In this document: one piece after another, positions 1-18,010 of the stretch
Layout of the letters: each line of letters starts with the position of its first letter
Position numbering within the stretch: the first letter of the stretch is position 1
Origin: Ostreococcus lucimarinus
Lineage: Eukaryota
Assembly: GCA_000092065.1 (NCBI GenBank)
Contig: CP000582.1
Reading direction: 5' to 3' (one strand)
Length of the DNA stretch: 64,000 nucleotides
Made by a program: the position numbers and the translations under genes
The notes under the pieces: generated by a model
What the model was told of the DNA's origin: nothing
Seen by the model: only the letters and a program-made list of their open reading frames with translations
Databases searched by the model: none

Positions 1-2755
1 TTCCGACCGACGCAGTATTCCAGGACGATATGGGTTGATTGAACGTGGACGCGCCGCTGAACATTCCAGCCATGTTCGTGACCGCGCGCGTATTCCACGT
101 CGATAGAGCACCGTTGAACAGATTTGCACTCGCAAACATGTTCTGCATATTCTTCACGTTGACCACGTCGAAGCCGCTCAAGTCACTCGGTGCGAACGCC
201 TTCGCCGACGAAAACATAGAACTCATGTCCGTCACCGAACTCGTCACCCAACCGCCAGCCGAACCGAGTCCCGGACGGTTGAAATCAAACGCGCTCTCGA
301 ACATAGAGCTCATATCTAGCACAGACGCCGTGTTCCAGCCCGAGATGTCCTCGTTAAACTTGAGCGCCAATTTGAAAGTGCCGGCCATATCGACGACGTT
401 CCTCGTGTTCCAAGCACCAATACCGGCGCCTGGGAAGTCGGATGCCATCTCAAACATGCTCGAAATATTTCCCACATTCACCATGTTCCAAGTGCCGACG
501 TTCTGTGTAAAAAAGTTGGCTTTATAAAACATTTGACTCATGTCCGTCACCAACGCCGTACTCCAGCTTCCGATCGCCTTGTTGAATCGGCTGGCGCCGG
601 CGAACATTCCAACCATTTTCGTCACCGCAGCCGTATTCCACGCCGAGATGTCCGCATTGAACGATTGCGCATCCTTGAACAATTCCGACATATCGGTGAT
701 GAGCGCGGTGTTCCACTGCGTAATATCGTCGTACACGGCAGGACCACAGTCCACCGGCGCACTGTCGCAATTGCACGCCCCGGAAGAGGAAGCGGCCAAG
801 CAACTGCTCACGGCGGCTTTCAGCTGACTCAAGGACGTGAACGGACCTGGGCTAACCCAAACAGAAGGCGGACCGTCGCGCGATGCGGAGAAATCAGGCT
901 GGCGGTACATCGTCAACCAAGCCGTGGCGGAACTGAACATGTTTGTCACGCCGGCGCCGGCGGGGACGGACCAGTTACGAATGCCGTCTTGCAAGAAAGC
1001 CGTCGCCCCTTGAAACATGCGCGTCATCGAAACCGCAGACGTCACGACCCACGAAGAAATATCTTGATTGAATGAAGGGTTACCCTCAAACATGTATTCA
1101 AAATCTTCAACTTTGGACACGTCCCACCCGCCAATCGATCCGTTGAAGGAAGTGCCCTGAAACATGTACGCCGTGCTGCGAACCTCACCAGTGTTCCAGA
1201 TGGTCAGGTTCAGTAAAGGCGCGTTGGTGCCCTGAAACATCGCATGCATGCCCGTGACTTTACTCGTGTCCCACGTGTTGAGGGGCTGATTGAAAGAGGT
1301 CGCGCTTTCAAACATGTACTCCATGTCCGTCACTTCCCCGGTGTCCCACTTGGTGATGTCCTGATTGAAACTCGTCGCCTGTTTAAACATCGAATTCATG
1401 TTCGTCACTCTCGCCGTGTTCCACGATTGTATATTTTGATTGAAGGCGGTCGCGCCTTGTAACATATTTCTCATGTTCGTGACCTTCTCCGTATTCCATG
1501 CCGTGATATCCGAATTGAAACTCCGCGCGCCATAAAAGGCTGATTCAAGGTTCGTCACTCGCCGCGTGTTCCATGCTCCGATGTTCTGATTGAACGCGGT
1601 AGCTTCTTCAAAAATAGCCTGCATGTCGAGCACGCTTTCCGTGTTCCAGCTTCCGATGTTCTGATTGAACGCAGACGCTCTATAAAACATGTACCTCATT
1701 TTCTGCACGTTGTTCGTGTTCCAAGAAGAGATGTCCTGATTGAACGCCGCGGCTTCTTGAAACATAAAGTTCATCCTCGTCACAAGAGCCGTATTCCACG
1801 CCGAGATGTCCGCGTTAAACGATGTCTTACCTCGAAAAACCTCCGATAAGTCCGTAAGTTGTTCAACGCGCCATAGACGTATCGGCGCGCCCTCGCCGCT
1901 TCCGCAGTCTACGCTCTGCAATTTGCAGTTGCACGCCCCAGAAGGCGAAGCGGCGAGACAGTTGTCCACCGCGGTTTTCAAGGCCGTTTTACTCGTAAAC
2001 GGCGACGGTCCCGTCCAGGCAGAGGCTGGTCCGGCCTTCAACGTCGTCCAATCGTTTCTGCGATACTTCTCAAGCCACTTGGTCGCGCCCTCGAACATAT
2101 CGTTGACATTATTGGTCCCACCGTGCGGCCAACCTGTGATATCTTGATCAAAATTCACGGCGTTTTTGAACATATCAGTGAACCAATTGATCGCGTTTGT
2201 GTTCCAACTAGAGATATCTTCATTGAACGACCTGGCGTTGTCAAACATACCCTCGCAATCAGTGACTTTGGTGACGTTCCAAGCGCCGATGCCCGCGCCG
2301 GTGAACGAACTCGCGCCTCTGAACATGTCCCACATTGTCACTTGCACATTTGACGCTGTGTTTATGGTCCATCCGCCCAGGTTGGCGTTGAATTGGTTTG
2401 TTCTGTACGGAATATTACCGAAACTTTGATCAGTGGCGTATTCAGAATCCGCGAAGACACCCTTGAAACTGACGACGTTCGACACGTCCCACGAGCTTAT
2501 AGGGGGAATGGCATAAGTAACGCCACCTATAGTCACTGTTCCACACGAAGCGCCGGTCGCATCGTGGGCTAAGCAGTGCTTTATCGTCGAGCACATATTG
2601 CATCCCGAGCTTGAATCCCGATTATGTTGCCCTGTGAACGCGCCCGTCGTACAGATGGTGGCGTTGTTGGGCGCGCACAGGACCTGCGCGTCGACGCCGA
2701 TCCATCGCGACCCGATCGCGACGACGACCATCGCCTCCACCATCATCCGCGCCAT
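1..2755 (-). CDS. Secreted DUF285-type (PF03382-like) repeat protein with Cys-rich linkers. N-terminus (signal peptide) is at about 2755; the C-terminus lies beyond the window start, so the CDS is partial.
   Basis: The minus-strand frame is open from the ATG at about 2755 to position 1 and was checked at several points. It begins MARMMVEAMVVVAIGSRWIGVDAQVLCAPNN (signal-peptide-like). It then carries more than 30 copies of a 26-28 aa unit F-x2-A-x2-FNQDIS-x-WNT-x2-VT-x-M-x2-MF. Two CLAASxSGACNC Cys-rich linkers split two large modules. The plus-strand track ORFs 39-2429 are antisense readings of the same periodic DNA. The ORF is absent from the track because it has no in-window stop. Confidence 0.6.
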   Translation of the reverse strand, partial: MARMMVEAMVVVAIGSRWIGVDAQVLCAPNNATICTTGAFTGQHNRDSSSGCNMCSTIKHCLAHDATGASCGTVTIGGVTYAIPPISSWDVSNVVSFKGVFADSEYATDQSFGNIPYRTNQFNANLGGWTINTASNVQVTMWDMFRGASSFTGAGIGAWNVTKVTDCEGMFDNARSFNEDISSWNTNAINWFTDMFKNAVNFDQDITGWPHGGTNNVNDMFEGATKWLEKYRRNDWTTLKAGPASAWTGPSPFTSKTALKTAVDNCLAASPSGACNCKLQSVDCGSGEGAPIRLWRVEQLTDLSEVFRGKTSFNADISAWNTALVTRMNFMFQEAAAFNQDISSWNTNNVQKMRYMFYRASAFNQNIGSWNTESVLDMQAIFEEATAFNQNIGAWNTRRVTNLESAFYGARSFNSDITAWNTEKVTNMRNMLQGATAFNQNIQSWNTARVTNMNSMFKQATSFNQDITKWDTGEVTDMEYMFESATSFNQPLNTWDTSKVTGMHAMFQGTNAPLLNLTIWNTGEVRSTAYMFQGTSFNGSIGGWDVSKVEDFEYMFEGNPSFNQDISSWVVTSAVSMTRMFQGATAFLQDGIRNWSVPAGAGVTNMFSSATAWLTMYRQPDFSASRDGPPSVWVSPGPFTSLSQLKAAVSSCLAASSSGACNCDSAPVDCGPAVYDDITQWNTALITDMSELFKDAQSFNADISAWNTAAVTKMVGMFAGASRFNKAIGSWSTALVTDMSQMFYKANFFTQNVGTWNMVNVGNISSMFEMASDFPGAGIGAWNTRNVVDMAGTFKLALKFNEDISGWNTASVLDMSSMFESAFDFNRPGLGSAGGWVTSSVTDMSSMFSSAKAFAPSDLSGFDVVNVKNMQNMFASANLFNGALSTWNTRAVTNMAGMFSGASTFNQPISSWNTASVG

Positions 2756-2796
2756 CGTCCGCGCGCGCGCGCGCCGTCCGATCCCGCCCCGCGCCG

Positions 2797-2833
<37 letters not shown>

Positions 2834-3400
2834 ATTCGCGCGGCCCGCGGCGACGTTCGAGTTCGACCCCGCGTCCGCGCGCCTCGCCGCGCCTCGCCGC
2901 GATCGCGCGTCGCGCGTCGCGCGCGCCTCGCCGCGCGCGCCTCGCCGCGTCCGCGTCCGCGTCCGCATCGTCGTCGGCGTCGCGCGCGCGCGTTTGACGC
3001 GCGCGGTCGTTCGTCCCCGTCGCCGACGAACGGTCGATTCTCTGCCAGAGAATCTCTGGATTTGATTTTTCATGGGATCGCGTGCGCGCGGATTACGTGA
3101 TCGACCGCGGTCGCGCGGTGTAAACAGGTGTTCGGACATTCGGTCACCCCGCGGACTGTTTGCCCAGTGCGATGCGCGTCGCGCGGCGTCGCGTCGCCCC
3201 GCGCGCGGCGCGCGGCGCGCGCGCGGCACGCGTCGACGCGACGCGCGCGCGCGATCGAGCGCGCGCGCGCACCGGCGACGGACGACGCGGCGACGAGGGC
3301 GCGCGAAGGCGCGAACGCGCGCGAGACGGCGAATTCACGGGCGCGGAATTCAGTTTGAATCGATCGCGCGCGCGACGGACGACGGACGACGGACGACGGC
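2756..3400. promoter_or_regulatory. Hyper-GC divergent intergenic region between the DUF285 gene (minus) and the lysine-rich gene (plus). It is built from (GTC)n and CG-rich direct repeats and is a probable bidirectional promoter or 5'UTR region.
   Basis: There is no ORF with GC3 bias or conserved motifs. It contains (GTC)11 at about 2798-2832 and tandem cgcgcctcgccgcg units at 2870-2960. It is flanked by two divergent start codons. Confidence 0.35.
2798..2832. repeat. (GTC)n trinucleotide microsatellite
   Basis: gtcgtcgtc... about 11 units, visible directly. Confidence 0.9.
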
Positions 3401-3925
3401 ATGCCGCCGAAGACGACGGCGACGGGGAAGAAACCGGCGGGGAAGGGGACGAAGAAACCGGCGGGGGTGAAGAAGCCGGCGGCGAAGAAGAAGAAAGCGG
3501 CGACGAAGAAGAAGAAGGCGGCGACGAAGAAGAAGGCGACGGCGAAGGCGGAGGCGCCGAAGAACGATTACGAATTGCACGGACAGAAGCGGGACGCGCC
3601 GGACGAGACGGATCCGTTGAGGAAGTTTTACGCGTCGTTGAGGCGACAGAATCCGAAGAGCGTGATGGCGGAGGTGTGGTTGATGGAGCACGGGTTGCTC
3701 GAGGACGCCGAGGCGCAGGCGGACGCGTACAAGCGGTTTTTGAAGAGTAAGGGGAGAGCGGTGCCGAAGCTTGCGGTGAAAAAGACGACCACGGTGAAGA
3801 AGGAACCGAAATCGGAGGTGAAGACGGAAGCGGTGAGTGAAGAACAGGTGAAACCGACGGTGGCGTTGGACGACGAGGACTCGGACTCGGACGTGCCGCT
3901 CGCGCGACGCGCTTCGCTGAAATAA
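3401..3925 (+). CDS. Lysine-rich basic protein with an H1/HMG-like K/A/P-rich N-terminal tail and a C-terminal acidic stretch. Probably a nuclear/chromatin protein.
   Basis: A true ATG is at 3401 and GC3 bias is strong. Sequence begins MPPKTTATGKKPAGKGTKKPAGVKKPAAKKKKAATKKKK, then DYELHGQKRDAPDETDPLRKFYASLRRQNPKSVMAEVWLMEHGLL. Confidence 0.5.
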   Translation: MPPKTTATGKKPAGKGTKKPAGVKKPAAKKKKAATKKKKAATKKKATAKAEAPKNDYELHGQKRDAPDETDPLRKFYASLRRQNPKSVMAEVWLMEHGLLEDAEAQADAYKRFLKSKGRAVPKLAVKKTTTVKKEPKSEVKTEAVSEEQVKPTVALDDEDSDSDVPLARRASLK

Positions 3926-4131: not shown

Positions 4132-4854
4132 ATGCCTCGCGAGGCGCGATATGACACCCTCTACCCCGTGTCCGCGCGTCAATACTACGATTTAATGCTC
4201 TCGAGCGCGTTTCAGCGCGACGTGCACGTCAATGGATTGGGCATGCGGGTCTGGGACAACGTCGACGAATACCCGCGACCGCGGCGATTACATCGTAAGG
4301 CGTACAGCGAACCGACGCTGCGATTGCCAAAATGGATGGCTCGATTCGCGCGCAAGTCGCAGGCGTACACGGAGTATTCGGAATTCGACCCGGAGACACT
4401 GTCGAGAACGACGCGCGTCGTCCCGACGTTGGGCGCGAACGTGATGGAGTTCACCGTGGAGGAGCGATACGTCGATCGCGAACCGAGTGCGAACTCAAAG
4501 ACGAAACGGGGTAAGCGGTCCACGACGGTCGAGCGTGCGGGCTGCGTGGTTATTTCAGTGGTGCGTATTCGATGCAAGGTGCGGTTGTTTCGTAACTTGT
4601 TTGAGCGATGGATTTTAGAACAAAGCGAACTCAAAGTGGCGCAGAGAGATGCGTACGTGTTGAACGCGTTGAAAGAAAACGCTTACGACGATCTGTTGGC
4701 TCGCGACGAGCTCGAGAAAGCTCAATCGCAACGTGACGCGATCGACGCGCACGCTTCGTCGCCGCTGACGTCGATTGCGCGCACCGCCACCGCATCTGCT
4801 GCTATCGTCGTGGTAAGGCTTCTCGTCGCGCGGCCCGGCCGCCGAAGCCGCTAA
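4132..4854 (+). CDS. Hypothetical protein. The 3' end is uncertain and a small 3' intron is possible.
   Basis: ATG at 4132, 240-aa ORF with diverse composition and moderate codon bias. The tail ...AAIVVVRLLVARPGRRSR looks like read-through into non-coding sequence. Confidence 0.35.
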   Translation: MPREARYDTLYPVSARQYYDLMLSSAFQRDVHVNGLGMRVWDNVDEYPRPRRLHRKAYSEPTLRLPKWMARFARKSQAYTEYSEFDPETLSRTTRVVPTLGANVMEFTVEERYVDREPSANSKTKRGKRSTTVERAGCVVISVVRIRCKVRLFRNLFERWILEQSELKVAQRDAYVLNALKENAYDDLLARDELEKAQSQRDAIDAHASSPLTSIARTATASAAIVVVRLLVARPGRRSR

Positions 4855-4890: not shown

Positions 4891-6165
4891 CTAGTGCTTT
4901 CTACTCATCCAAGCCGTGTACTTGTGCTCGACGACATTTACGAGAGGTTCGAGCTTTACGAGCGCGTTCGACTCCGTCGGTCCGACTACCTCAACAACGC
5001 CACAACGTCCGAAATGCTGCGCCAGACTCAAGCCGCTGAGACAATAACACGTGTGATAGTGATCTCGACCCGTTCCAGGCTTGTCGCGCAACCCGCCCGC
5101 ACCCTGTTCGGATTGGCAACAATCCAGAATCCACCCTTGCAGGGCGCCGTTCGCAAACGGAGCCGGCGCAGGGATCGACGACGGAAACTCTGCGGGCGTA
5201 AACAAAGTCGCCGCACACGCACCCATGGGACGAGCATTGAATGCGAAATCTCTTGGATCGATTTGAGAGCCTTCTGGTGTCACCACGTGTCGGCTTTGGT
5301 GAATAAACTGTTCGAGAAGGTGCGAGTTCGCGAGGGCCAACAGCGGAAAGCAACCACCTTGCCAGAACGAATAGCACCCATCAACGAGTTTGTTCGTTCG
5401 ACCATTAAACCCGCCCTCGATCTCTCCTTGCCTGTTCGCCAACCAGCGCTCGAGACTCGCTAGATCTAACGCCCCAATGTCGCCCGCCAACGCGCACGCC
5501 GCGAGCCCGCAAAACGTGTAACCGCCGTGCGCCTCCCCACGCGGCTCGCCACCGATACCACCCTCGTAACTCTGACAGCTCGCCACGAATGAGCTCACAC
5601 CACGCGTCAACTCTTCATCGAGGACTCCGCACAAGTGCGCGGTCGCCAACGCGGCGTAGCATCCTCGCGTATCGCTCTCGCCGCCTTCGTGCACGCGAAA
5701 GCCACCCGTGCGCGAATCCTTCAGAGACAACAAAAAAGCCCTCAAATCCGCCCCTACGATCGCCTCGCGCGCCTCATCGGTGCCGATCGTCACCAACGCG
5801 CACGTCGCCGCGTACGTCGTCGCGATGTGCGGCATCTGTCCCGGACCACCGCCGAAGCCAAAGCACGCGCGCTCGCCGCGTCGACTTCGGCAGCGCCTCA
5901 AAAACCGCACGACGTCCGACGCCAGCGCTTCATCGCGCTCGCGTAGGTCCACACCGAGGAGTGCGAGTCCGTGCACGCACCAGTACACGACCCACGCCCG
6001 CGAGGCGTCGAGCGAGGTGAAAGCGGTCGGGAGCGTTCTCAGGCCACCGAGCAAATACTCCACGTGTGCGTCCCTGGCGAGCGCGGACGCGCGATCGGGG
6101 CGCTCGTAGATGTCGCGCGCGATGTTTTCGAGGTTCAACACCGCCTCCGCGGATGCGGAGGTCAT
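4891..6165 (-). CDS. FNTB: Protein farnesyltransferase beta subunit (prenyltransferase alpha-alpha toroid repeats)
   Basis: Repeated GGFxGRxNKLVDGCYSFW-type toroid motifs. The C-terminal signature RDKPGTGRDHYHTCYCLSGLSLAQHFG matches FTase-beta (RDKPGKSRDFYHTCYCLSGLSIAQHFG). Confidence 0.85.
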   Translation of the reverse strand: MTSASAEAVLNLENIARDIYERPDRASALARDAHVEYLLGGLRTLPTAFTSLDASRAWVVYWCVHGLALLGVDLRERDEALASDVVRFLRRCRSRRGERACFGFGGGPGQMPHIATTYAATCALVTIGTDEAREAIVGADLRAFLLSLKDSRTGGFRVHEGGESDTRGCYAALATAHLCGVLDEELTRGVSSFVASCQSYEGGIGGEPRGEAHGGYTFCGLAACALAGDIGALDLASLERWLANRQGEIEGGFNGRTNKLVDGCYSFWQGGCFPLLALANSHLLEQFIHQSRHVVTPEGSQIDPRDFAFNARPMGACAATLFTPAEFPSSIPAPAPFANGALQGWILDCCQSEQGAGGLRDKPGTGRDHYHTCYCLSGLSLAQHFGRCGVVEVVGPTESNALVKLEPLVNVVEHKYTAWMSRKH

Positions 6166-7323: not shown

Positions 7324-8877
7324 CTAAGTCTTTCGTTCTATGGGCTTTTGATCGGCACCGCGGGCGTTCCAGAGTAATCCCTGCTTAACGGCGGCGAACC
7401 AATCGTTGTTTTCGCTGGCGTTGCACACGCTCGGGACGGGAAAACCGGCGACGCGCACGACGACGGCGTCGCCGCGGGCGAGCTCGGTTTGGAATTTGCC
7501 GTCGAACGCGGCCCAGGCGGTGTTGCGAGCGTCGCGCGGGCACGTGATGGTGACCACGACGGAGTCAGGCAGAACGATGGGGCGGAAAGAGAGGGAGTGC
7601 GGACAAATCGGGGTGACGCACAGCGCCGGTACGCCGGGATGCACCATGGAGCCGCCGGCGGCGAGCGAGTACGCCGTGCTCCCGGTGGGGGAGCTTAAAA
7701 TGACGCCATCAGCGGCGACTTTGGTGACGTGATAACCGTCGACTGCGATATCGAGCTCGACCATGACCGGCTTCGGACCGCGATCGATGAGAACTTCGTT
7801 TAGGACGTATCGCCACTGCGACGACACGCCTTCGGCTGAGACGACTTTAGCCACGAGTCGGCTTCGCATCGAGATCGTAAAATCTCCCTGCATCACGACA
7901 GCGAGTTTCTTCTCCATGTCATCCACCCTGTGCGACGTGAGAAATCCGAGCGAACCCATGGCGAAAGGCACCACGGGGGGCATCGCCTTCGGGAAATACT
8001 TTGATGCCCACAAAATCGTGCCGTCCCCGCCCAAGACGACGATGAAATCGATAATCTCATCCAGATGAAAGCTTGCATCGCCTGCATCCCAAGTCTGACA
8101 ATCACCCTGTAACTCGGCGAACTCATCCCACACCGCGCGTTCGAGCCAAGCGGTAACGCCCTTACTCTTCAGCACGCGCGTCGCGCGAATCATCATCTCC
8201 GCCGCCGCGGCGTCGTGAATCTTCTTCACCACAAGCGCATTCCTCGGCGCCTCGAGCCAGGAAAACTTACTGTGCGGCAAACCTTTCTGCTTCGTGCGGA
8301 TCTTTCTATCGAGCGGTTCCAGGACTTCCACTCCCTCGTCGTTCGCCAGCACCAACTCGAACGCCGCCTTGAGCGTCCCTCGCGCCTCCGCCGACGCCGA
8401 CGGCGGCGATTCGATCAACGACTGCGCGCTCGCCCGCCCTCGCCCACACGGCGGCTCTACGCCATCGTCCAATCCATCGCTATCGTCGTCGGCCTCGCCG
8501 CCGCCCGCGCTGCTCGTGAATCCTTCGCCTTGCTCGTCGCACTCGCGAACGACGAATTTGTGACTCTTCGTGCGGAAGCCAGCCAACCGCTTTTCCCTGG
8601 CGCTCGTCGTGAGCGACTCCGTGCTCTCGCTCCGGTGCACGCTGATTGGCTCGACGCCCTCGTCTTCGAAGCGCACGCCGCGCGCGCGCGACGACGGCGC
8701 CGAGGCGTCGACATCGGGACGATTACGCAGCGATTCGACCAAACGTTTGAGCTCGACGTTCTCGCGCTCGAGCGCGCGCGCGCGGTCCTCGGCGCGCGCG
8801 TCGTCGGCGTGGATAGTTTTTAGACGCTCGAGCGCGCGCTCGAGCGCGGGCACGTCGATCGGGTCGGCGCGGGACAT
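7324..8877 (-). CDS. NADK: NAD(H) kinase with a long coiled-coil/acidic N-terminal extension (plant NADK2-like)
   Basis: Motifs FIVVLGGDGTILWA (GGDG), NEVLIDRG (NE/D), SSPTGSTAYSLAAGG. The track ORF starts at a TTG at 8976. The first ATG (MSRADPIDVPALERALERL) is at about 8877. Confidence 0.8.
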   Translation of the reverse strand: MSRADPIDVPALERALERLKTIHADDARAEDRARALERENVELKRLVESLRNRPDVDASAPSSRARGVRFEDEGVEPISVHRSESTESLTTSAREKRLAGFRTKSHKFVVRECDEQGEGFTSSAGGGEADDDSDGLDDGVEPPCGRGRASAQSLIESPPSASAEARGTLKAAFELVLANDEGVEVLEPLDRKIRTKQKGLPHSKFSWLEAPRNALVVKKIHDAAAAEMMIRATRVLKSKGVTAWLERAVWDEFAELQGDCQTWDAGDASFHLDEIIDFIVVLGGDGTILWASKYFPKAMPPVVPFAMGSLGFLTSHRVDDMEKKLAVVMQGDFTISMRSRLVAKVVSAEGVSSQWRYVLNEVLIDRGPKPVMVELDIAVDGYHVTKVAADGVILSSPTGSTAYSLAAGGSMVHPGVPALCVTPICPHSLSFRPIVLPDSVVVTITCPRDARNTAWAAFDGKFQTELARGDAVVVRVAGFPVPSVCNASENNDWFAAVKQGLLWNARGADQKPIERKT

Positions 8878-8997
8878 CGCGCGAGGCGCGCAGTGCGTTC
8901 GAAGCCGACCCGCCGCGCGCGCTCGCCAATCTTCATAAAACGAATGAAACGACCATCGTCTCGCATCACAATTCAAATCAATCGGCGTTCGTCGAGG

Positions 8998-9324
8998 CTA
9001 CAGCTCATCGTCCTCGTCGAAGGCGTTTCGACGACGATCAAAGTTAATTTTACCCACGCGTCCGCTCGCCGCGCCGCTCGCGCCGCCAGCCGCGTTTTCC
9101 AACATTCCAATCAACGCCTGTTCGCTCACCCTGCGCACGCGTCCCGCCCGCGCGGCGCGAAGTATGCTCTCCTCGAGCGCTCGCGCTTTTTCCGGCTTCA
9201 CGATCGCTATTCGGCTCAGTCGCTCTCTCGCCGCGGGTTCGAGCGCGCTCGCGAGCGCCGCGCCGCGTCGCGCCTCGTCCTCCCTCGCGCGCGCCTCCGC
9301 GTTCGCCGTCTCCTCCGCGTTCAC
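8998..9324 (-). CDS. PDCD5: Programmed cell death protein 5 (PDCD5/TFAR19, dsDNA-binding domain)
   Basis: ARERLSRIAIVKPEKARALEESILRAARAGRV...VSEQALIGML...KINFDRRRNAFDEDDE aligns with PDCD5 ([32 protein letters not shown]...VSEQGLIEIL...KFNRRKVMDSDEDDD). It sits inside a spurious 530-aa R-rich antisense track ORF. Confidence 0.75.
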   Translation of the reverse strand: MNAEETANAEARAREDEARRGAALASALEPAARERLSRIAIVKPEKARALEESILRAARAGRVRRVSEQALIGMLENAAGGASGAASGRVGKINFDRRRNAFDEDDEL

Positions 9325-9350
9325 GACGCCGTCGCCGTCCGCGTCCGCCT

Positions 9351-9412
9351 GTCGTCGTCGTCGTCGTCGTCGTCGTCAGTCTCGCGGTTTCGTCGTCGGC
9401 GTCCGTCGCGCG

Positions 9413-9445
<33 letters not shown>

Positions 9446-9474
9446 GTCAAAGTCGCGGTTTCGTCGTCGTCGTC
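9351..9474. repeat. Cluster of (GTC)n / (GAC)n microsatellites in the GC-rich spacer upstream of PDCD5
   Basis: Runs of gtcgtcgtc at 9351-9376, 9421-9443 and 9461-9474. An adjacent 20-nt direct repeat gcgcgggctcgcgtcgcgtc occurs twice at about 9487-9526. Confidence 0.8.
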
Positions 9475-10278
9475 GCGCGCGCGCGCCGTCGCGCGGGCTC
9501 GCGTCGCGTCGCGCGGGCTCGCGTCGCGTCGCGTCGCGCGCGCACCGTCCGAAGCGCCGCGGCGTCCATCGCGCGCGCCGTCGCGCGTCGCGCGGTGCCG
9601 CCGCACACGTCGACGCGCGCGCGATGGCTCGAGAGCAGAGGTGCGCGACGACGGCGCGCGCGACGGACGACGACGGCGCGAGGCGCGTCGAGGACGACCG
9701 CGCGATGGACGACCGCGGGTCGAGGACGCGGCGACGCGCGACGGACGCGCGACGGATGCGCGCGAGTTGTTTGAGTTGTTTGAGTTTTTGAGTTTCGACG
9801 CGACGACTGACGCGAGACGACGGACGCGCGCAGCGCGAACGACGAGGACGCGTCGACGAGCTTTTTCTTGGTGTCGCCGAGCGCGGTGGTGGGCGCGAGG
9901 AAGCGCGGGTCGGACGCGGCGTTCGGGACGAGGGACGGCGCGGACGCGCGCGACGGCGCGGAACGCGCGGGGAAGCGACGGAGGAGTTTGCGACTCGCGC
10001 GCGCGGCGCCGGCGCGGGCGAAGGATGATTGCGGCGATGCGCGCGCGAAGGGGACGGGCGCGGCGCGCGCGGTGCCGAAACCGCGAGTTTTGACGAAGGC
10101 GAACGCGAACGTTCCGGCGCCGAGAGGCGCGGCGACGAAAGTCGTCGGCGAGGTCGCGCCGGCGAAGAAATCGTTTCCGGCGCCGCGGTTGGATAAACTG
10201 CGGGGGACGTGAGTGTCGTGACGCGCTCGCCGCGCGGTCGGGTCCTCGAACGTCGCTGAGAAATAGTTACAAGCGTAC

Positions 10279-12267
10279 TCAAATAGATTCCGCGAAGCGG
10301 ACGACGTCGCGAACCGCGCCGCCGCGACACTGACTTCCAGAGCCGTCTAGCCCGTCGAAAGTTCGGGACCAGACGTCGTGCACGAACGCGCGCTCGCGCT
10401 CGAGCGCGAAGCGCGGCTCGCCGTGGACGCCGATGAGCCAAGGAAGGGGCTTTTCTCCGTTTTCTATGACGAATTCGAGCTCGAAGAATACCGGAGCGCC
10501 GACGGCGGCGTATCCGGCGTAATGCGAGTCTTGTATGACGTTCCGTTCTTCCCTGACGCGCGCGCGGAAAGCGCGCACGACGGTTTGACACTGCGCGATC
10601 ATAGTCTTTGAAATGTCGTCCAATCCAAGCAAGCGCGCGCACAAGTCATCGATGTCGACTTCTCGCACCACGGCGGAGGCTTCGTCGCCGCTCAAGCCTC
10701 GATTTGTGAACTCGCGCAAGAACAGCTCGTCGTCGTATTCGTCACCCAAAATCACGCCATCGCCGTACTCGCGCACCGTGGAGTGCACTGACACGTATTG
10801 CGCGATGTACGCGACGTCGAAGCTCGGTTCGCGATCGGGAACGAACGCCGCGCGGACGCGTACCGAGCACTTTCGACCGAGCTCGTCCGTCACGCAGTCC
10901 TCGACGCGTCGCTGTGCGATGAGCCCACCTCGCGATCGTCGCGACGACGAGTCGATGATTTCCTCGCGAAAATACGCCAGCGTCCCGATGCGATTCTTGC
11001 GCTGTTTGAAAAGGCCTGGAAATTTCACGTGCTCGCCTTTGAGAACGTAGAGACGATTCGCGTCGCCAGAGCTCAAGTTTTCATCGATGTTCTCACTCGT
11101 GACCAACGTGGGCGATGAGACCGCGCCAGTGCCGTCGTACTGCGCGATAGCCTCGTGCGCTCGCGTTTTCGATGTCAGGAGTTCGTGCCAATGAGCGCCG
11201 TGGCTCACACTGTTGAACATGTCGAGCGAAGCGAAGAGGGAATCTTCGCCGCGCTCGGCTTCTGCGACCGACTCGCGCGCATTCCGCCACATTTCGCGGT
11301 ACGCCTCCACACTCTCATCGTCTCCACCATCGCACGCTAAGCGTGCGAGCGGATATACCGCCATGATTCCCGCGCCCGCGTGGAGCGCTTGCGTGTACAA
11401 ACTCGTCGGCTCGGCGGCGTAGCCGTTGAGATGCAGCGCGTGCGCGAGCGTGAACAACAACAGCGGATGCTTACCCGGTCTCACGAACTTACCCTCGGGA
11501 CCTCCTGATTTAGCCAACCGCATGAGTTTCACCGCACTCGCGATCGCGCCGAACTGCACGCACATCAGTCGCGCCAGCGCGATCCACGCGTCTGGATAGT
11601 CAAACGCGACGTTGACGCACTTGGCGTACTCCTCCTCGGCGTGATTGTACAACCCCAGATCTTCGCACATTCGTCCCGCGAATACGTACGCGGCGACGCA
11701 ACTGGGCGTGTGCTCGTACGTCGATCGCACGCATGAGAGACCGCGCGCGACGTACCCCTGCGCGCGATACACCGCGCCCAGCTGCAGCGACGCCTCGTAG
11801 TACTCTGGTTCAATCGCCAACGCGCGCTCCACCTTTTCCGCGAACGCGACCGCGGCCGCCCGCGCGCGCGGCGCGCCCTCGGGCGCCACCATCGCGTTCC
11901 TCGCGTCCTCCATCAGCTCCACGACCCTCGGATCGCGATCGCGCGCCTCGGCCGCCGCCGTCATCGCGCGCACCTCGGCGTCTCGCTTCGCCTCGTCCAG
12001 CCCCTCCCGCGCGCTCGCCTCGGCGTCCTCGCGAAGCGCCGCCTCCACGTCGTCCAGCGCGCGACGCGCGTCGTTCACGTCATCGTCGTCGCGCTCGTCC
12101 TCGTCGCCGTCGCGCGCGCGATCCATCGCGTCCGCGCGCGCGCCCTCGATCGCCGCTCGAATCTTTTTCGCATCCTCGAGCACGACCCTCGCGTCGCGTC
12201 TTCGCGCCGTCTCCGCCGCGCGCCGTCGCGCCGTCGCGTACGACGTCGCGCGCTCGAATCCATACAT
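10279..12267 (-). CDS. TPR-repeat protein with a C-terminal tubulin-tyrosine-ligase-like (TTL/ATP-grasp) domain
   Basis: The N-terminal half is TPR-like (EPEYYEASLQLGAVYRAQGY..., AWIALARLMCV...). The C-terminus has RLYVLKGEHV..., and PVFFELEFVIENGEKPLPWLIGVHGEPRF resembles the TTL motif F(D/E)LxGxDFxxD...PWLLEVNxxP. GC3 bias is strong. Confidence 0.6.
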   Translation of the reverse strand: MYGFERATSYATARRRAAETARRRDARVVLEDAKKIRAAIEGARADAMDRARDGDEDERDDDDVNDARRALDDVEAALREDAEASAREGLDEAKRDAEVRAMTAAAEARDRDPRVVELMEDARNAMVAPEGAPRARAAAVAFAEKVERALAIEPEYYEASLQLGAVYRAQGYVARGLSCVRSTYEHTPSCVAAYVFAGRMCEDLGLYNHAEEEYAKCVNVAFDYPDAWIALARLMCVQFGAIASAVKLMRLAKSGGPEGKFVRPGKHPLLLFTLAHALHLNGYAAEPTSLYTQALHAGAGIMAVYPLARLACDGGDDESVEAYREMWRNARESVAEAERGEDSLFASLDMFNSVSHGAHWHELLTSKTRAHEAIAQYDGTGAVSSPTLVTSENIDENLSSGDANRLYVLKGEHVKFPGLFKQRKNRIGTLAYFREEIIDSSSRRSRGGLIAQRRVEDCVTDELGRKCSVRVRAAFVPDREPSFDVAYIAQYVSVHSTVREYGDGVILGDEYDDELFLREFTNRGLSGDEASAVVREVDIDDLCARLLGLDDISKTMIAQCQTVVRAFRARVREERNVIQDSHYAGYAAVGAPVFFELEFVIENGEKPLPWLIGVHGEPRFALERERAFVHDVWSRTFDGLDGSGSQCRGGAVRDVVRFAESI

Positions 12268-12336
12268 GCGTTCGATCGCGCGCGCGCGCGACGCGTCGTC
12301 GTCTCGCGCGTCGGTCGCGCGGTTTCCGCGCGCCGC

Positions 12337-13164
12337 GTGCGTTTTCGAAAAAGCGTTTTTTCGACGATTCGACTCGGCGCGCGGTCAAACCGCGACGCCG
12401 CGTCGTTCGCGCGCTCGATGCGCGCGCTCGTCGGCGGCGCGGACTGCGCGCGCGCGGGCGTCGCGATCGTCCTCGGCGGATTCGCGCGCGATCGCGCGTG
12501 GCGCGACGTCGCGCGCGACGACGACGGCGCGCGATCGTCGCGCGCCGTCGTCGACGATGATTTCGACGACGACGACGCGCGCGCGACGGCGACGGCGACG
12601 CCGACGCTCGGCGCGGCGCGCGACGGCGACGACGCCTTCGTCGCGCTGAACGCGCGCGTCGACCGCGCGGACGCGGCGCGCGTCGCGCTGGAGGCGATCG
12701 ACGCGCTGGACGCGCTCGCGGGCGACGACGCGCTGGACGAGGCGTGCTTCGTCGTGGCGGTGCGCGACGACGCGCTCGAGCGGGACGCGCGCGAGGTGGA
12801 CGACGCGGAGGCGTTTCTCGCGTTCGAAGACGCGCGAAACGGCGCGCGGGCGTCGCGAGCGGAGGGGATCGTGGCGAGGGCGCTCGGCGCGCGAGGGCTC
12901 GACGCGCGAGACGGCGGCGCGCTGGCGACGACGCTGCGGGCGTTGGAGGCGCGCGGGACGAAGACGAGGGTGCTGTACGCGCCGGCACACGAGGCGGGGA
13001 AGTTCGACGCGGACGGCGGGCGAGCGGCGATGGCGGTGAGGCATCGGTTGGGGCGGGCGGTGGAGGCGAGCGCGTTCGCGACGGCGCGCGCGTACGACGA
13101 GGACGCGGCGGCGAGATTGACGCCGGCAGCGGCGGCGAACGAGCGCGAGTCCCTGTACGTGTGA
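12337..13164 (+). CDS. Hypothetical Ala/Asp/Arg-rich protein of unknown function
   Basis: Almost every codon in this frame ends in G/C (coding-like GC3). The overlapping minus-strand ORFs (12075-13220) are S/R/A homopolymer-like. The track start is GTG; the first ATG gives MRALVGGADCARAG... No family recognised. Confidence 0.3.
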   Translation: MRFRKSVFSTIRLGARSNRDAASFARSMRALVGGADCARAGVAIVLGGFARDRAWRDVARDDDGARSSRAVVDDDFDDDDARATATATPTLGAARDGDDAFVALNARVDRADAARVALEAIDALDALAGDDALDEACFVVAVRDDALERDAREVDDAEAFLAFEDARNGARASRAEGIVARALGARGLDARDGGALATTLRALEARGTKTRVLYAPAHEAGKFDADGGRAAMAVRHRLGRAVEASAFATARAYDEDAAARLTPAAAANERESLYV

Positions 13165-13216
13165 TGGCGCGCTAAACTGAACGGTATTGTAATATTAAAT
13201 CGACGAACGCGTTCGC

Positions 13217-14302
13217 TCACGCGGACGGTGGCGGCGGCGGCGGCGGCGGCGGTCCGCGCGCCGGCGGCATCACGATGGTCGGTCGCCCTCGCGCGTCGTA
13301 TCGCACCGGCACGTACATCATCGGCTGCCCAGCGGCGGACGGTGGCGGCGGCGCGCCGCCGACGCCCATCTGTCCCATTGCCGCGCTCGGCGGCGGCGGT
13401 GGCGGTCGCGGAAGCCCGCGCATGCCGAACATACCGCCGCCGCCCATCGGCGACGGCTTGGCGCCGCCGCCGCGCGCGCCGGACGATCGCTTCTTTCCGT
13501 TCGCCTTTTTCCGCGCCGCTTTCGCCGCGGCTTCCTCTTCGTCGTCGCTGAACTCTTCCTCCTCGACCACTTCCTCGTCATCCTTACCGCTCGCGTCGTA
13601 CCCCTTCTTATACAACCTCGCGACGTTCGGAATCCTCCTCGACCGCCCGACGACGACGAACACCTCGTCCCCCGTCTCCGCCGTCACCTCCTCCGGCAAC
13701 CGCAGCGCGTACAGCGGCGCGCTCACCGGTCCAAACACCTCCTCGATCGCTCCCAACCCTCGCCGATCGCGCGTGCACAGCACGCTCTCCTCGTCCAGCG
13801 TCTCGTCGACGCCGTCCAGATCCGTCTCTCGCTCGCGCGTCGCGTCGCCCCTCCCGCTCTGCACCACCATCGTCCGTCCCACCACCGACACCACCCGTCC
13901 CACCGCCTCGATCGTCTCGTCGCTCCCGATCGCCGCCACCGGCGTCACCGCCCCGTCGTCGTTCGCGATCTCGTTCCGCGTCCTCGGCGGCGCGTCGCCG
14001 TCTTCGCCGTCCTCGTCGTCGTCGTCGTCGTCCCCCCCGTCGCGCGCGCGCGCCAACCACTTCGGCACGTCCCTCGCGCTCACGCTCTCGCACGACGTCG
14101 ACCCATCGTCTTCGTCGCTCTCGCTCGTCGTCCACGCGCTCGACGAGCTCGCGTCGTCGCGCCGTCGCGCCTCGTCGAACGCGAATTCCGGCACGCGCGC
14201 CTCGTCGCTCGCGTCGTCGCGTCGCGCGTCGCCCGTCGCGCGGGCCGCCGCCGCGGCGACGCGCACGTCGAGCGGCGCGCGTTCGAGCGCGCGCTCGAGC
14301 AT
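13217..14302 (-). CDS. NAF1: H/ACA snoRNP assembly factor NAF1-like (Gar1-type domain plus Pro-rich C-terminus)
   Basis: RGLGAIEEVFGPVSAPLYALRLPEEV...GDEVFVVVGRSRRIPNVARLYKKGYDASGKDDEEV is a Gar1/Naf1 fold signature. It is followed by acidic and poly-Pro/Gly tails. The track ORF extends antisense into exportin up to 15346, which is implausible. The ATG at about 14302 (MLERALERAPL) is taken as the start. Confidence 0.6.
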   Translation of the reverse strand: MLERALERAPLDVRVAAAAARATGDARRDDASDEARVPEFAFDEARRRDDASSSSAWTTSESDEDDGSTSCESVSARDVPKWLARARDGGDDDDDDEDGEDGDAPPRTRNEIANDDGAVTPVAAIGSDETIEAVGRVVSVVGRTMVVQSGRGDATRERETDLDGVDETLDEESVLCTRDRRGLGAIEEVFGPVSAPLYALRLPEEVTAETGDEVFVVVGRSRRIPNVARLYKKGYDASGKDDEEVVEEEEFSDDEEEAAAKAARKKANGKKRSSGARGGGAKPSPMGGGGMFGMRGLPRPPPPPPSAAMGQMGVGGAPPPPSAAGQPMMYVPVRYDARGRPTIVMPPARGPPPPPPPPPSA

Positions 14303-14864: not shown

Positions 14865-17800
14865 CGCGCGGAGGCGGAGAAGATTTTGCAGAGTTTGCAA
14901 GAGCACGAACAGACGTGGACGCGCGTGGATGGGATCTTGGAGACGTCTAAGAATGCGAATACGAAGTTTTTCGCGCTGCAAGTGCTGGATGGGGTGATCA
15001 AGTACCGATGGGGGTTGTTGCCGAACGACCAACGCGAGGGGATCAAAAATTTCGTGAGCAATTTGATCATCAAGTTGAGCGCCGATGAGACGACGTTTAG
15101 GCGGGATCGGGCGTACATCAACAAGATCAATAACGTGCTGGTGCAGATTTTGAAACACGATTGGCCGCATCGCTGGCAGAGTTTCATTCCGGATTTGGTG
15201 GGCGCGGCGAGGACGAGCGAGTCGCTGTGCGAAAACTGCATGAGCATCTTGAAATTGCTGTCGGAGGAAGTTTTCGATTTCAGTCGAGGGGAGATGACGC
15301 AAGACAAAATTAGAGCGCTGAAGACTTCTTTGAACAGCGAGTTCAAGATGATTCACGAGCTGTGCGAGTTTGTCCTGACGCATTCGCAAAAACCAGAGTT
15401 GATAAAGACGACGCTCACGACGCTCAACGCGTTCTTGTCGTGGATACCTCTCGGTTACATCTTCGAGTCGTCGTTGTTGGACACCTTGCTCGCGCTCGCG
15501 CCCAATCCGGCGTATCGCAACATCGCATTCCTCTGTCTGTCGGAGATTGGTGGTTTGAACGTCGAGGCGAAATACGACGCGCACTTCATCAAGCTCTACA
15601 CCGTCGCCGTGGAACACCTGCTGGGCATCTTGCCTCGCGGCGTGAACATCGCCCAGGCGTACGCCAACGGTACGGATGACGAGCAGGCGTTTGTGCAAAA
15701 CTTGGGCATCTTCCTCACTCAATTTTTCAAAGCTCACATCGTGCTCTTGGAATCGACCGCCGAGTTGCAGCAATCGATGCTCATCGGCATCGAGTATCTT
15801 TTGAACATTTCCTACGTGGAAGAACCTGAAGTTTTCAAGGTTTGCCTCGATTACTGGCACTTCATGGTGTGTGATGTGTTCCAATCCGAAGGCGGTGATG
15901 CCGGGGACTTCCGATTCGGCGGAGATGTCGTCGCTCAAAACGAGCGAGGCGTAAACCGTCGAGTGCTGTACGCCGCGCCGTTTAGCAAACTGCGCTTGCT
16001 GATGATTTCGCGCATGGCCAAACCGGAGGAGGTTTTGATCGTAGAGGATGAAAATGGGAACATCGTGCGAGAAACTTTGAAGGATAACGACGTCTTGGTG
16101 CAGTACAAGATTATGCGCGAGACTCTGATTTACCTTGCGCATCTCGACCACAAGGATACCGAAACGCAAATGCTCGAAAAACTGCACGCGCAGCTCAACG
16201 GTCGTGAGTACACGTGGCATACGTTGAACACGCTCTGTTGGGCCATCGGTTCGATCAGTGGATCCATGCAAGAGGATCAAGAGAACCGATTTCTGGTGAC
16301 CGCCATTCGAGACTTGCTCAACCTGTGCGAAATCATGCGCATGAAGGACCACAAAGCCGTCATCGCGTCAAACATCATGTACGTTGTCGGACAGTACCCG
16401 CGCTTCTTACGTCTACATTGGAAGTTCTTGAAGACCGTGGTGAACAAGCTGTTCGAGTTCATGCACGAGACGCATCCGGGTGTGCAGGATATGGCGTGCG
16501 ATACGTTTCTGAAGATCTCCATGAAATGCAAGCGCAAATTTGTCATTTTACAAGTTGGCGAGACGGAGCCGTTCGTCGACGAACTTTTGCGAGGACTGTC
16601 TGACACTATTCGCGACTTAGAGCCGCATCAAGTGCACACGTTCTACGAATCTGTCGGTCACATGATCGGCAGCGAGTTGAACCCGGCGAAGAGAGAAGAG
16701 TACGTGCAGCGATTGATGGCGCCTCCCAATGAGCAGTGGCAACAAATCATGACTCAGGCGCGCCAGAATAGTGAGTGCTTGAAGAATCAAGACGTCATCA
16801 AAAACATCTTGAACATTCTCAAGTCGAACACGCACTTTTGCATGTCTCTTGGCCAACCGTTCCAAAACCAAATGTCAGCCATTTACGCGGATGTTTTGAA
16901 CGTTTACAAGCTTTACAGCGAATTGGTCAGTCAAAGCATCGCGGAAGGCGGGCCGTACGCAAGTAAGTCGTCCTTTGTCAAGTTGTTGCGCTCCGTCAAA
17001 CGAGAAGTTCTTCGACTCATCGAAACATTTGTCGAACGCTGCGACGACCCGCATCTCGTCGCGCAGCAGCTCGTGCCGCAGATGTACGATCCCATCTTGG
17101 GTGACTATGCGCGGAACATTCCGGACGCGCGCGACGCCGAGGTGTTGTCGCTCTTCGCGGCAATCATCAATAAGGTGGAGACTGCGATGACCGATGAAAT
17201 TCCGAAGATCTTCGACGCCGTGTTTGAGTGCACGTTGTCGATGATTACGAAGAACTTTGAGGACTTCCCCGATCATCGACTAAAGTTCTTCCTGCTTCTT
17301 CGTTCGGTAACGAATCACTGCTTCCGAGCTCTCGTTGCGTTGAGCCCGGCGCATTTGAAACTCATCATTGATTCCATTGTCTGGGCATTCCGTCACACCG
17401 AGCGCAACGTCGCGGATGAAGGTTTGAACTTACTTTTGGAGATGATGAAGTACTTTCAACTCTCCGAATACTGCAATCAATTCCACCAAAGCTTCTACTT
17501 GATGACGATGAGCGAGGTCTTCGCCGTCATGACGGATGGTTTTCACAAGCCAGGTTTCAAATTGCACGCTCTCATTCTGCAAAATCTCTTCACTATTAGC
17601 GAAAGTGATCAATTGAGTGCGCCTCTTTGGGACGTTGCGGCGAAGGGGGCGGGCGCTTATCCGTCCAACGCGGCTTTCGTTCAAGAGCACTGCGCGCAGT
17701 TGTTGTGCACCTCGTTCCCGAACATGCCACCAGCTGAAGTTCAAACGTTAGTTCTCGCGATGTTCCAATGCAAGAATGACCTCGCGGCGTTCAAGTCAAC

Positions 17801-17957
17801 GTTGAGGGACTTCTTAGTGCAGACGAAACAATTTAGCAGCGTGGATTTTGCAGAGGAAGAGCAAAGCCGGTTAGCGGCTCAGCGACAAGCGCGGCTTTCA
17901 GCTATTCCGGGGATGGTCAGCGGCGCGAACGTCGGTGACATGGATGACGACGAGTAG
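14865..17957 (+). CDS. XPO1: Exportin-1 (CRM1) main exon
   Basis: The 1071-aa ORF is colinear with CRM1: importin-beta N-terminus WTRVDGILETSKNANTKFFALQVLDGVIKYRWGLLPNDQREGIKNFV, and the CRM1 central and C-terminal regions along its length. Confidence 0.9.
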   Translation, partial: RAEAEKILQSLQEHEQTWTRVDGILETSKNANTKFFALQVLDGVIKYRWGLLPNDQREGIKNFVSNLIIKLSADETTFRRDRAYINKINNVLVQILKHDWPHRWQSFIPDLVGAARTSESLCENCMSILKLLSEEVFDFSRGEMTQDKIRALKTSLNSEFKMIHELCEFVLTHSQKPELIKTTLTTLNAFLSWIPLGYIFESSLLDTLLALAPNPAYRNIAFLCLSEIGGLNVEAKYDAHFIKLYTVAVEHLLGILPRGVNIAQAYANGTDDEQAFVQNLGIFLTQFFKAHIVLLESTAELQQSMLIGIEYLLNISYVEEPEVFKVCLDYWHFMVCDVFQSEGGDAGDFRFGGDVVAQNERGVNRRVLYAAPFSKLRLLMISRMAKPEEVLIVEDENGNIVRETLKDNDVLVQYKIMRETLIYLAHLDHKDTETQMLEKLHAQLNGREYTWHTLNTLCWAIGSISGSMQEDQENRFLVTAIRDLLNLCEIMRMKDHKAVIASNIMYVVGQYPRFLRLHWKFLKTVVNKLFEFMHETHPGVQDMACDTFLKISMKCKRKFVILQVGETEPFVDELLRGLSDTIRDLEPHQVHTFYESVGHMIGSELNPAKREEYVQRLMAPPNEQWQQIMTQARQNSECLKNQDVIKNILNILKSNTHFCMSLGQPFQNQMSAIYADVLNVYKLYSELVSQSIAEGGPYASKSSFVKLLRSVKREVLRLIETFVERCDDPHLVAQQLVPQMYDPILGDYARNIPDARDAEVLSLFAAIINKVETAMTDEIPKIFDAVFECTLSMITKNFEDFPDHRLKFFLLLRSVTNHCFRALVALSPAHLKLIIDSIVWAFRHTERNVADEGLNLLLEMMKYFQLSEYCNQFHQSFYLMTMSEVFAVMTDGFHKPGFKLHALILQNLFTISESDQLSAPLWDVAAKGAGAYPSNAAFVQEHCAQLLCTSFPNMPPAEVQTLVLAMFQCKNDLAAFKSTLRDFLVQTKQFSSVDFAEEEQSRLAAQRQARLSAIPGMVSGANVGDMDDDE

Positions 17958-18010
17958 ATCGACGGCTCTTTAAATACTACGAAATCTAACAATAGCTAAA
18001 TATATATAGT

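Follow-up and report, generated by a model that had tools for sequence, protein, structure and literature searches.

The locus and its reading frame

The DNA analysed here, called the window in the following, is a stretch of 64,000 nucleotides (nt) from Ostreococcus lucimarinus CCE9901, and all positions given are those of the whole stretch. Its beginning is occupied, on the minus strand, by a gene made of tandem DUF285 (PF03382) repeats that runs off the window edge (Table 1). The first-pass annotation, made from the sequence, had described this gene as encoding a giant secreted protein. Continuation of the reading frame in metagenome contigs leads to a different view, in which the window part is predicted to be the ectodomain (extracellular or lumenal) of a very large polytopic membrane protein.

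The minus-strand frame has no stop from 3334 to 2 (1111 codons) and contains ATG codons at 3073, 2968, and 2755. The assignment of the true gene to this strand is therefore upheld, and no stop that would turn it into a pseudogene was found. From ATG 2755 to the window start, 918 residues are encoded. The 193 codons located 5′ of this ATG (2756-3334) also stay open, encoding an Arg-rich low-complexity sequence; a (CGT)n tract at 2798-2832 would give poly-Thr if translated in the gene frame. Metagenome gene callers place the start at 3073 or 2968, thereby adding 71-106 residues that are probably spurious. Polymorphism in the 2756-3400 region comprises too few differences to tell which start codon is used. 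However, the open reading frame (ORF) of one orthologue opens just 7-21 codons 5′ of the hydrophobic segment, which favours ATG 2755. With this probable start, the N-terminus displays signal-like features: the n-region is positive, the hydrophobic core spans 12 residues and the motif V-D-A stands ahead of Gln24. Orthologue N-termini are similar (MRHEARGAVVAVVVAVVARGARA and MRALVVVACALARAARA): each of the three orthologues opens on a positive stretch, which a hydrophobic core and a small-x-small motif follow. Hence, of the signal peptide announced previously, the signal-like N-terminus stands and is found in orthologues alike, whereas its designation as a probable signal peptide (residues 1-23) remains a rule-of-thumb judgement. 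A Pfam scan of the Cys-rich cap that follows (residues 24-88) gave no family other than DUF285.

Table 1. Features of the DUF285 gene and of its surroundings in the window (aa, amino acids; LRR, leucine-rich repeat; HMM, hidden Markov model).
Position	Strand	Feature	Basis
2..2755	-	First 918 codons: signal-like N-terminus, DUF285 modules I, II, and part of III	Open frame, PF03382, contig continuation
2..715	-	Module III, first 10 units, aa 681-918; array extends past the window	Unit HMM
716..919	-	Cap/linker 2, aa 613-680; holds CLAASSSGACNC at nt 767-802	
920..1873	-	Module II, aa 295-612, 13 units, predicted LRR-fold solenoid	
575..1657	-	1083-bp (361-codon) segment, single in the window, tandem duplicate in four wild assemblies	blastn offsets
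1874..2050	-	Cap/linker 1, aa 236-294; holds CLAASPSGACNC at nt 1925-1960	
2051..2491	-	Module I, aa 89-235, 6 degenerate units; putative membrane-distal tip, polymorphism hot spot	Unit HMM
2492..2686	-	Cys-rich N-terminal cap, aa 24-88, 6 Cys	Translation
2687..2755	-	Signal-peptide-like N-terminus, aa 1-23, MARMMVEAMVVVAIGSRWIGVDA followed by QV	Sequence reading, rule of thumb
2756..3400	.	GC-rich low-complexity region between the DUF285 gene and the divergent 174-aa gene	(CGT)n, in-frame ATGs
3401-3925	+	174-aa gene, XP_001416105	Exact O. lucimarinus protein match
4132-4854	+	Neighbour gene, XP_001416106	Exact O. lucimarinus protein match
4891-6165	-	Farnesyltransferase, XP_001416342	Exact O. 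lucimarinus protein match

DUF285 repeats, modules and fold

On the 918 residues, PF03382 scores 736.7 bits (E 4.9e-226, 8 matched stretches, cut-off 25), which places the DUF285 identification far above threshold, and the PARCEL repeat model TIGR02167 scores 206.5 bits (cut-off 30). The NF045896 model (Mbov_0838 PARCEL surface lipoprotein) reaches 441.9 bits, under its cut-off of 500; the host is a eukaryote and the protein has no lipobox. Apart from DUF285, no Pfam family, LRR families included, was matched by the 918 residues at E ≤ 0.01, and no further DUF285 unit was found elsewhere in the 64-kb window.

Repeats recur every 75 nt (25 residues). Using a unit HMM built from this protein, 29 units were counted in the window: module I has 6, all degenerate, module II has 13, and module III has 10, of which the final one is cut short. 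As about 20 of the 29 are canonical 25-residue units, the earlier figure of more than 30 repeats was a slight overcount. The unit consensus is WNTxxVTxMxxMFxxAxxFNQxI, with W, V, M, F, and F/N columns conserved over 36 sequences. PF03382 scores 97 bits on residues 1-280 alone. The complete gene would contain about 42 units in three arrays or, in alleles carrying the duplication described below, about 54 units in four arrays; in contig L003, the third array reaches residue 1277.

Arrays are connected by conserved cap/linker elements composed of a helix and four cysteines, and both CLAASxSGACNC linkers are present at the expected places. The arrays behind the two linkers share 46% identity (130/280 aligned residues), much of it repeat consensus. 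At the DNA level, identity is 60-75% between units and 77% between the linkers (repeat D9 versus linker 2). The 48%-identical orthologue P0193 likewise possesses two linkers, located about 362 residues apart. Because the arrays have diverged and this orthologue has the two-linker layout, the internal duplication is old, and the view of near-identical, recently duplicated modules had to be abandoned.

The AlphaFold2 model of residues 240-700, obtained with 35 homologues, has a mean predicted local distance difference test (pLDDT) score of 80.6, with values above 95 over the 13-unit array. In this model, linker 1 forms a helix and then a Cys cluster ahead of the solenoid, and the segment following the array (linker 2), of low pLDDT, is probably flexible. 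The predicted solenoid of short repeats superposes on solved LRR structures; by sequence, no solved structure matches the DUF285 part. According to the model, DUF285 arrays are LRR solenoids, in agreement with the label "BspA family leucine-rich repeat surface protein" carried by homologues at NCBI. The PARCEL repeat was previously modelled as an amphipathic helix (Röske et al. 2010, PMC2996958), a picture that the predicted LRR solenoid would supersede.

Two properties of the coding DNA may be reported separately. ORFs of 72-180 aa exist antisense to the gene on the plus strand, as pointed out in the first-pass annotation, where they were attributed to the periodicity of the DNA. Antisense stops number 11, 20, and 60, against 11.0, 14.9, and 60.3 in 500 codon-shuffled controls. 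Since codon shuffles are equally open in all antisense frames, the ORFs are regarded as a by-product of codon usage and the idea of a special product of periodic DNA was rejected. Strong palindromy was also rejected, dyad symmetry appearing weak: only one palindrome (18 nt, 78%) occurs in the coding DNA, no perfect 8-mer inverted repeat was found in the gene, and imperfect inverted repeats of 10-12 nt are slightly more frequent than in codon shuffles (z 2.6-2.9).

Continuation of the gene beyond the window

Two general homologue searches failed to bring up the cluster of this gene, the candidate list being presumably saturated by repeat words; the cluster was recovered via the neighbouring genes and an exhaustive search. 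Exact-sequence look-up of the neighbouring 174-aa protein gave metagenome contigs with about 99% DNA identity to the window. The ORF is uninterrupted past window position 1 in L001-L005 and L009. Counted from the MARMM start, the protein has 2415 residues in L003, and it has 2776 in L001, L002, L004, and L005. Seven independent assemblies show what follows the arrays in this ORF: a Cys-rich stalk, then 6-8 predicted membrane helices, and a predicted cytosolic domain of about 470 residues. In the 2776-aa allele, the last DUF285 unit ends at residue 1638. The stalk that follows gives weak DUF7630 and TNFR-like matches, under their cut-offs. Hydropathy then reveals six clear and two weaker transmembrane (TM) helices between residues 1746 and 2304 (six peaks of 1.76-2.46); a loop of about 150 residues separates TM4 from TM5. 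The protein further contains a disordered, Ser/Thr/Lys-rich loop. The C-terminal part is helical and terminated by an acidic tail; no known family was matched by this 470-residue domain.

The same organization is found in more distant sequences. The diverged allele P0194/L009, 95% identical over the first 918 residues, has an unchanged layout. Relatives P0193 and P0192 (46-48% identity, full-length) contain 35-36 units each together with the same membrane module. We are highly confident in the predicted architecture, in which ectodomain, stalk, multi-pass module and C-terminal domain follow one another.

These data bear directly on the proposal that the protein is secreted. A soluble secreted or surface-adhesion protein made of DUF285 repeats alone, perhaps with a simple C-terminal anchor, would be in line with a signal-like N-terminus followed by window residues devoid of any hydrophobic segment, and lipoproteins or secreted proteins are numerous among bacterial DUF285 members, MbovP0145 of M. 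bovis being an example (PMC8707762). However, because the ORF continues into stalk, membrane helices and C-terminal domain, the window protein is not considered to be secreted. Moreover, the C-terminal part shows no replacement polymorphism (see below) and is still joined to DUF285 arrays in the 46-48%-identical relatives. Proteolytic shedding of the ectodomain could still take place, but a protein limited to repeats is judged very improbable indeed, the least credible of the alternatives considered here. For genome scanning, the lesson is that the product of a repeat ORF truncated by the border of a window should not be labelled as secreted.

The membrane module and its relatives

When 1.84 billion representatives were searched exhaustively with the module-only relative P0069, the membrane module proved to be rare: 117 proteins were found at E ≤ 1e-3, among which 19 at E ≤ 1e-30. 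The ectodomains of close relatives are DUF285, Receptor L domain, or unassigned. In Mamiellales paralogues, the module formed by the stalk, membrane and cytosolic parts is the same, with 26-46% identity, but the ectodomains are not DUF285; they consist of a Receptor L domain or have no Pfam match. For instance, P0065 (L008 1122-6533), P0067, and P0068 have a Receptor L domain (PF01030) ectodomain in front of the same module. The existence of these paralogues suggests that the module serves as a chassis for different binding domains.

Distant relatives were examined in a set of 47 proteins of at least 400 residues. PF06011 is matched by 12 of them, DUF7630 by 14 and Ephrin_rec_like by 14. Their ectodomains include Kelch, FG-GAP, Filamin and Sushi domains, and their tails SH3, SH2, or EF-hand domains. 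Two module relatives exceed the PF06011 cut-off of 28.5 bits, with 38.8 and 32.3 bits. In profile-profile comparisons (hhalign), the O. lucimarinus stalk and TM1-4 align with the distant relatives (E 4.8e-54), and TM5-8 are colinear within the PF06011-matching part of P0240 (probability 94%, E 1.3e-7). With respect to solved structures, no sequence match was obtained for the membrane module, P0240 being matched via its SH3 tail only, and no hit of profile A2 fell below E 0.0028. By transitivity, the membrane module may be a remote relative of the TRP-like PF06011 proteins, which in fungi regulate Ca2+ homeostasis (PMC9600462, PMC8618638).

Copy-number variation and polymorphism

The 1083-bp segment indicated in Table 1 is doubled in L001, L002, L004, and L005, where a third CLAAS linker is gained. 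The two copies differ at 9-13 sites clustered at the ends, and their central ~900 bp are identical within an assembly. Copy-specific states are identical across the four assemblies, which come from different samples, and the duplication junction lies inside a 13-nt microhomology, ATCGGAAGCTGGA, between two repeat units. The recurrence of copy-specific states and the location of the junction show that the duplication is real and was created by unequal crossing-over. Single-copy forms are found in L003, in the diverged allele L009/P0194 and in the more distant orthologue P0193. At five junction-side sites, the window has the outgroup state. Since the outgroup is single-copy and its state is retained at these sites, the single copy would be ancestral and the duplication derived.

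It might be argued that the two-linker structure of the window results from assembly collapse of a three-linker gene. Within each duplicated assembly, the central region is identical in both copies, and the window combines the start of the first copy with the end of the second one, as a collapse would yield. In addition, assemblers struggle with this array: contig L006 ends inside it, at window position 1328, and the orthologue on L007 (Tara Oceans assembly) has a 100-N gap within its DUF285 array (~5560-5660), the called product being truncated to 1753 aa. On the other side, the single-copy state is shared with three other sequences, among which the 48%-identical orthologue, and the five junction-side sites have the outgroup state. 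Collapse is therefore considered unlikely, even though it is the least improbable of the alternatives envisaged, and the window probably represents the ancestral single-copy form. The earlier warning that the array would be prone to copy-number change and assembly trouble was well founded, as illustrated by the four duplicated assemblies and by L006 and L007.

Polymorphism was analysed by comparing the window with five metagenome alleles; counts are small and the assemblies are consensus ones. Within residues 1-280, 14 codons are polymorphic at nonsynonymous and 2 at synonymous positions. In the 1136 codons of the stalk, membrane and cytosolic part, no nonsynonymous and three synonymous polymorphic codons were observed. 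The distal 280 codons thus differ from the C-terminal part (Fisher p = 0.01), the ratio of nonsynonymous to synonymous diversity (piN/piS) being 1.18 versus 0. In the diverged allele, 25 of the 46 replacements fall within the first 245 residues. These values indicate that the C-terminal part is under strong purifying selection, and the polymorphism of the distal tip fits either partner recognition or relaxed constraint.

Genomic context

The set of genes flanking the DUF285 gene, encoding condensin Cnd1, the 174-aa protein, PRELI and farnesyltransferase, is kept in another Ostreococcus species, where a syntenic orthologue lies between these neighbours, and the same neighbours are found in the diverged lineage. 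No mobile-element gene was found near the DUF285 gene. Its GC content at third codon positions (GC3) is 0.57-0.67, versus 0.70-0.85 for the neighbours.

A further possibility is that the array is a mobile PARCEL cassette that horizontal transfer brought in recently and that has no host function, in line with the "mobilome" of Röske et al. 2010. Horizontal spread of PARCEL ORFs is indeed argued for in that paper (PMC2996958), which also stresses that Ostreococcus chromosome 2 may be exogenous. The best-scoring DUF285 arrays are mostly bacterial, and the GC3 of the gene is slightly under that of its neighbours. However, neither mobile-element association nor non-syntenic placement, which the authors proposed for PARCEL repeats though not as a strict definition, was observed, the flanking genes being conserved in another Ostreococcus species as well as in the diverged lineage. 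The apparently weak dyad symmetry and the fusion of the array to a eukaryote-type membrane module also speak against a cassette, and we regard such a recent acquisition as very improbable. An ancient transfer of the DUF285 repeat itself is possible.

Other observations concern the surroundings. The GC content of the window is 0.73 at 12001-14000 and 0.51 at 16001-18000; the window is probably located on chromosome 2, a compositionally unusual Ostreococcus chromosome. In the neighbouring NAD kinase gene (7324-8877, minus strand), 34 nonsynonymous and 5 synonymous summed pairwise differences were counted over six alleles (piN/piS 2.18), the other neighbours showing no or few such differences. 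A local indel, a frameshifted stretch or a misalignment may explain this excess. Beyond the NAD kinase gene (~8900-9800), gene calls of near-identical contigs disagree (L001 15598-16411, L002 15493-16116, L006 7563-8447), with either a 108-aa dsDNA_bind gene on the minus strand or an ORF of 207 or 294 aa on the plus strand. This mismatch could reflect a structural variant or a calling difference.

Proposed function

Taken as a whole, the best explanation appears to be a very large polytopic membrane protein of the cell surface, the DUF285 solenoid ectodomain of which would make it a receptor or adhesion sensor, and we consider this reading rather probable. The most likely function is that of a cell-surface receptor or adhesion sensor associated with a TRP-like membrane module. 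How such a protein would work can be outlined tentatively, with less confidence than doubt. The solenoids would form a rod tens of nanometres long, as estimated from typical LRR geometry, on the naked cell surface. The variable distal tip would bind an external partner, and this event, or else a mechanical load, would be relayed by the membrane module to the cytosol, perhaps by way of an ion flux. On this view, the protein would be a receptor or adhesion sensor rather than a shed adhesin. In natural populations, the number of modules changes by unequal crossing-over between repeat units. It is tempting to go further and to imagine that the solenoid rod gates or mechanically loads a divergent TRP-like module, that its tip, fast-evolving and variable in copy number, is shaped by an arms race against prasinoviruses, bacteria or mating partners, and that one membrane chassis serves a small Mamiellales family whose ectodomains (DUF285, Receptor L domain, and others) can be exchanged. 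This extended version is speculative and, in our opinion, doubtful.

Several points weigh against the receptor reading. Everything past residue 918 comes from metagenome contigs and not from the window. The link to TRP proteins is transitive only: no direct PF06011 match occurs in the C-terminal half of the O. lucimarinus protein at E ≤ 10, nor in any of 25 Mamiellales family members at E ≤ 1. The model of the membrane module is mediocre (pLDDT 62) and, when searched against PDB folds, gave no match below E 0.01. Fungal PF06011 proteins include endomembrane proteins. Finally, the polymorphism test, with six or seven consensus assemblies and small counts, fits diversifying or relaxed selection alike.

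One may also wonder whether the array is a passive structural or antifreeze-like coat, acting through bulk properties (ice binding, glycocalyx, spacing) and without signalling. In diatoms, DUF285 transcripts are enriched at high latitude and the solenoid has been compared to antifreeze proteins (10.1101/2024.06.08.598090); the ectodomain studied here contains 12-13 N-x-S/T sequons. Nevertheless, the array is covalently attached to a conserved multi-pass module and to a large predicted cytosolic domain, and among distant relatives of the module, tails of the kind usual in signalling proteins (SH3, SH2, or EF-hand) are found. The distal-tip polymorphism also suggests partner recognition. A coat without signalling hence seems improbable, and a receptor or adhesion sensor is preferred.

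A Tara Oceans study of diatoms places DUF285 among the domains of unknown function with the highest transcription in marine phytoplankton (10.1101/2024.06.08.598090). The locus described here offers a tractable case, as it is single-copy, syntenic, and joined to a conserved multi-pass module and a predicted cytosolic domain. The fusion to the multi-pass module points to surface sensing rather than to a passive coat, and the variation in module number together with the variable tip suggest where a ligand, a virus or a partner may bind. The orthologue of O. tauri is testable by gene targeting.

Comparison with known systems

The DUF285 repeat gene as such is already known. In Additional file 1 of PMC2996958, the O. 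lucimarinus protein XP_001416341.1 is credited with 38 domains, its PARCEL score being 1195.7. This accession number directly precedes that of the farnesyltransferase, XP_001416342, the next minus-strand gene in the window, and the protein is the second O. lucimarinus entry, which fits "chx. 2 [1]" in Table 2 of the same study. Because of this numbering, of the order in Table 2 and of the 38 listed domains, the gene is probably the one listed by Röske et al. 2010. Exact-sequence cluster look-ups for the NCBI accession of the full protein were uninformative. The occurrence of DUF285 in both Mollicutes/Firmicutes and marine protists, stated in the first-pass annotation, agrees with the literature (PMC2996958; 10.1101/2024.06.08.598090). 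In contrast, the large expanded family evoked there does not apply, since O. lucimarinus has only about nine PARCEL ORFs (Table 2 of PMC2996958). DUF285 is documented in phytoplankton and giant viruses (PMC10720644; 10.1101/2024.06.08.598090), including the giant virus AaV (PMC10720644), and no close relative was found in viral contigs by a single-protein scan. Polytopic PARCEL proteins have been mentioned (PMC2996958). What the present analysis adds is the predicted LRR fold, the PF06011-type link of a membrane module whose ectodomains are interchangeable, the duplication of a module in natural populations and the gradient of polymorphism; no paper describing these was found in a literature coverage that is incomplete.

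The protein resembles PARCEL/DUF285 proteins by its tandem 25-residue units, by scores above both curated cut-offs and by more than 7400 homologues. It differs from the PARCEL proteins of the 2010 paper by its predicted LRR solenoid, apparently weak dyad symmetry and syntenic locus, and it is not a lipoprotein. As for LRR receptor ectodomains, those of BACOVA_04585 (4fs7), of the plant LRR receptor kinases GSO1 and RGFR1, of LGR4/5 and of Toll-like receptors may be compared with the array. Identity to them amounts to 6-11%, the curvature is different and Foldseek TM-scores are 0.14-0.25. Furthermore, the partner domain is multi-pass in the present case, instead of a single helix followed by a kinase or TIR domain. 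By its architecture, the protein is also close to polycystin-1, which associates a giant LRR-containing ectodomain with a TRP-like membrane part. With PF06011 proteins (fungal Flc1-3, S. pombe Pkd2, A. nidulans TrpR), the O. lucimarinus protein has in common a large ectodomain placed before a multi-pass module. It departs from them by lacking the ML-like TRP_N domain and by having the long TM4-TM5 loop and the C-terminal helical domain described above.

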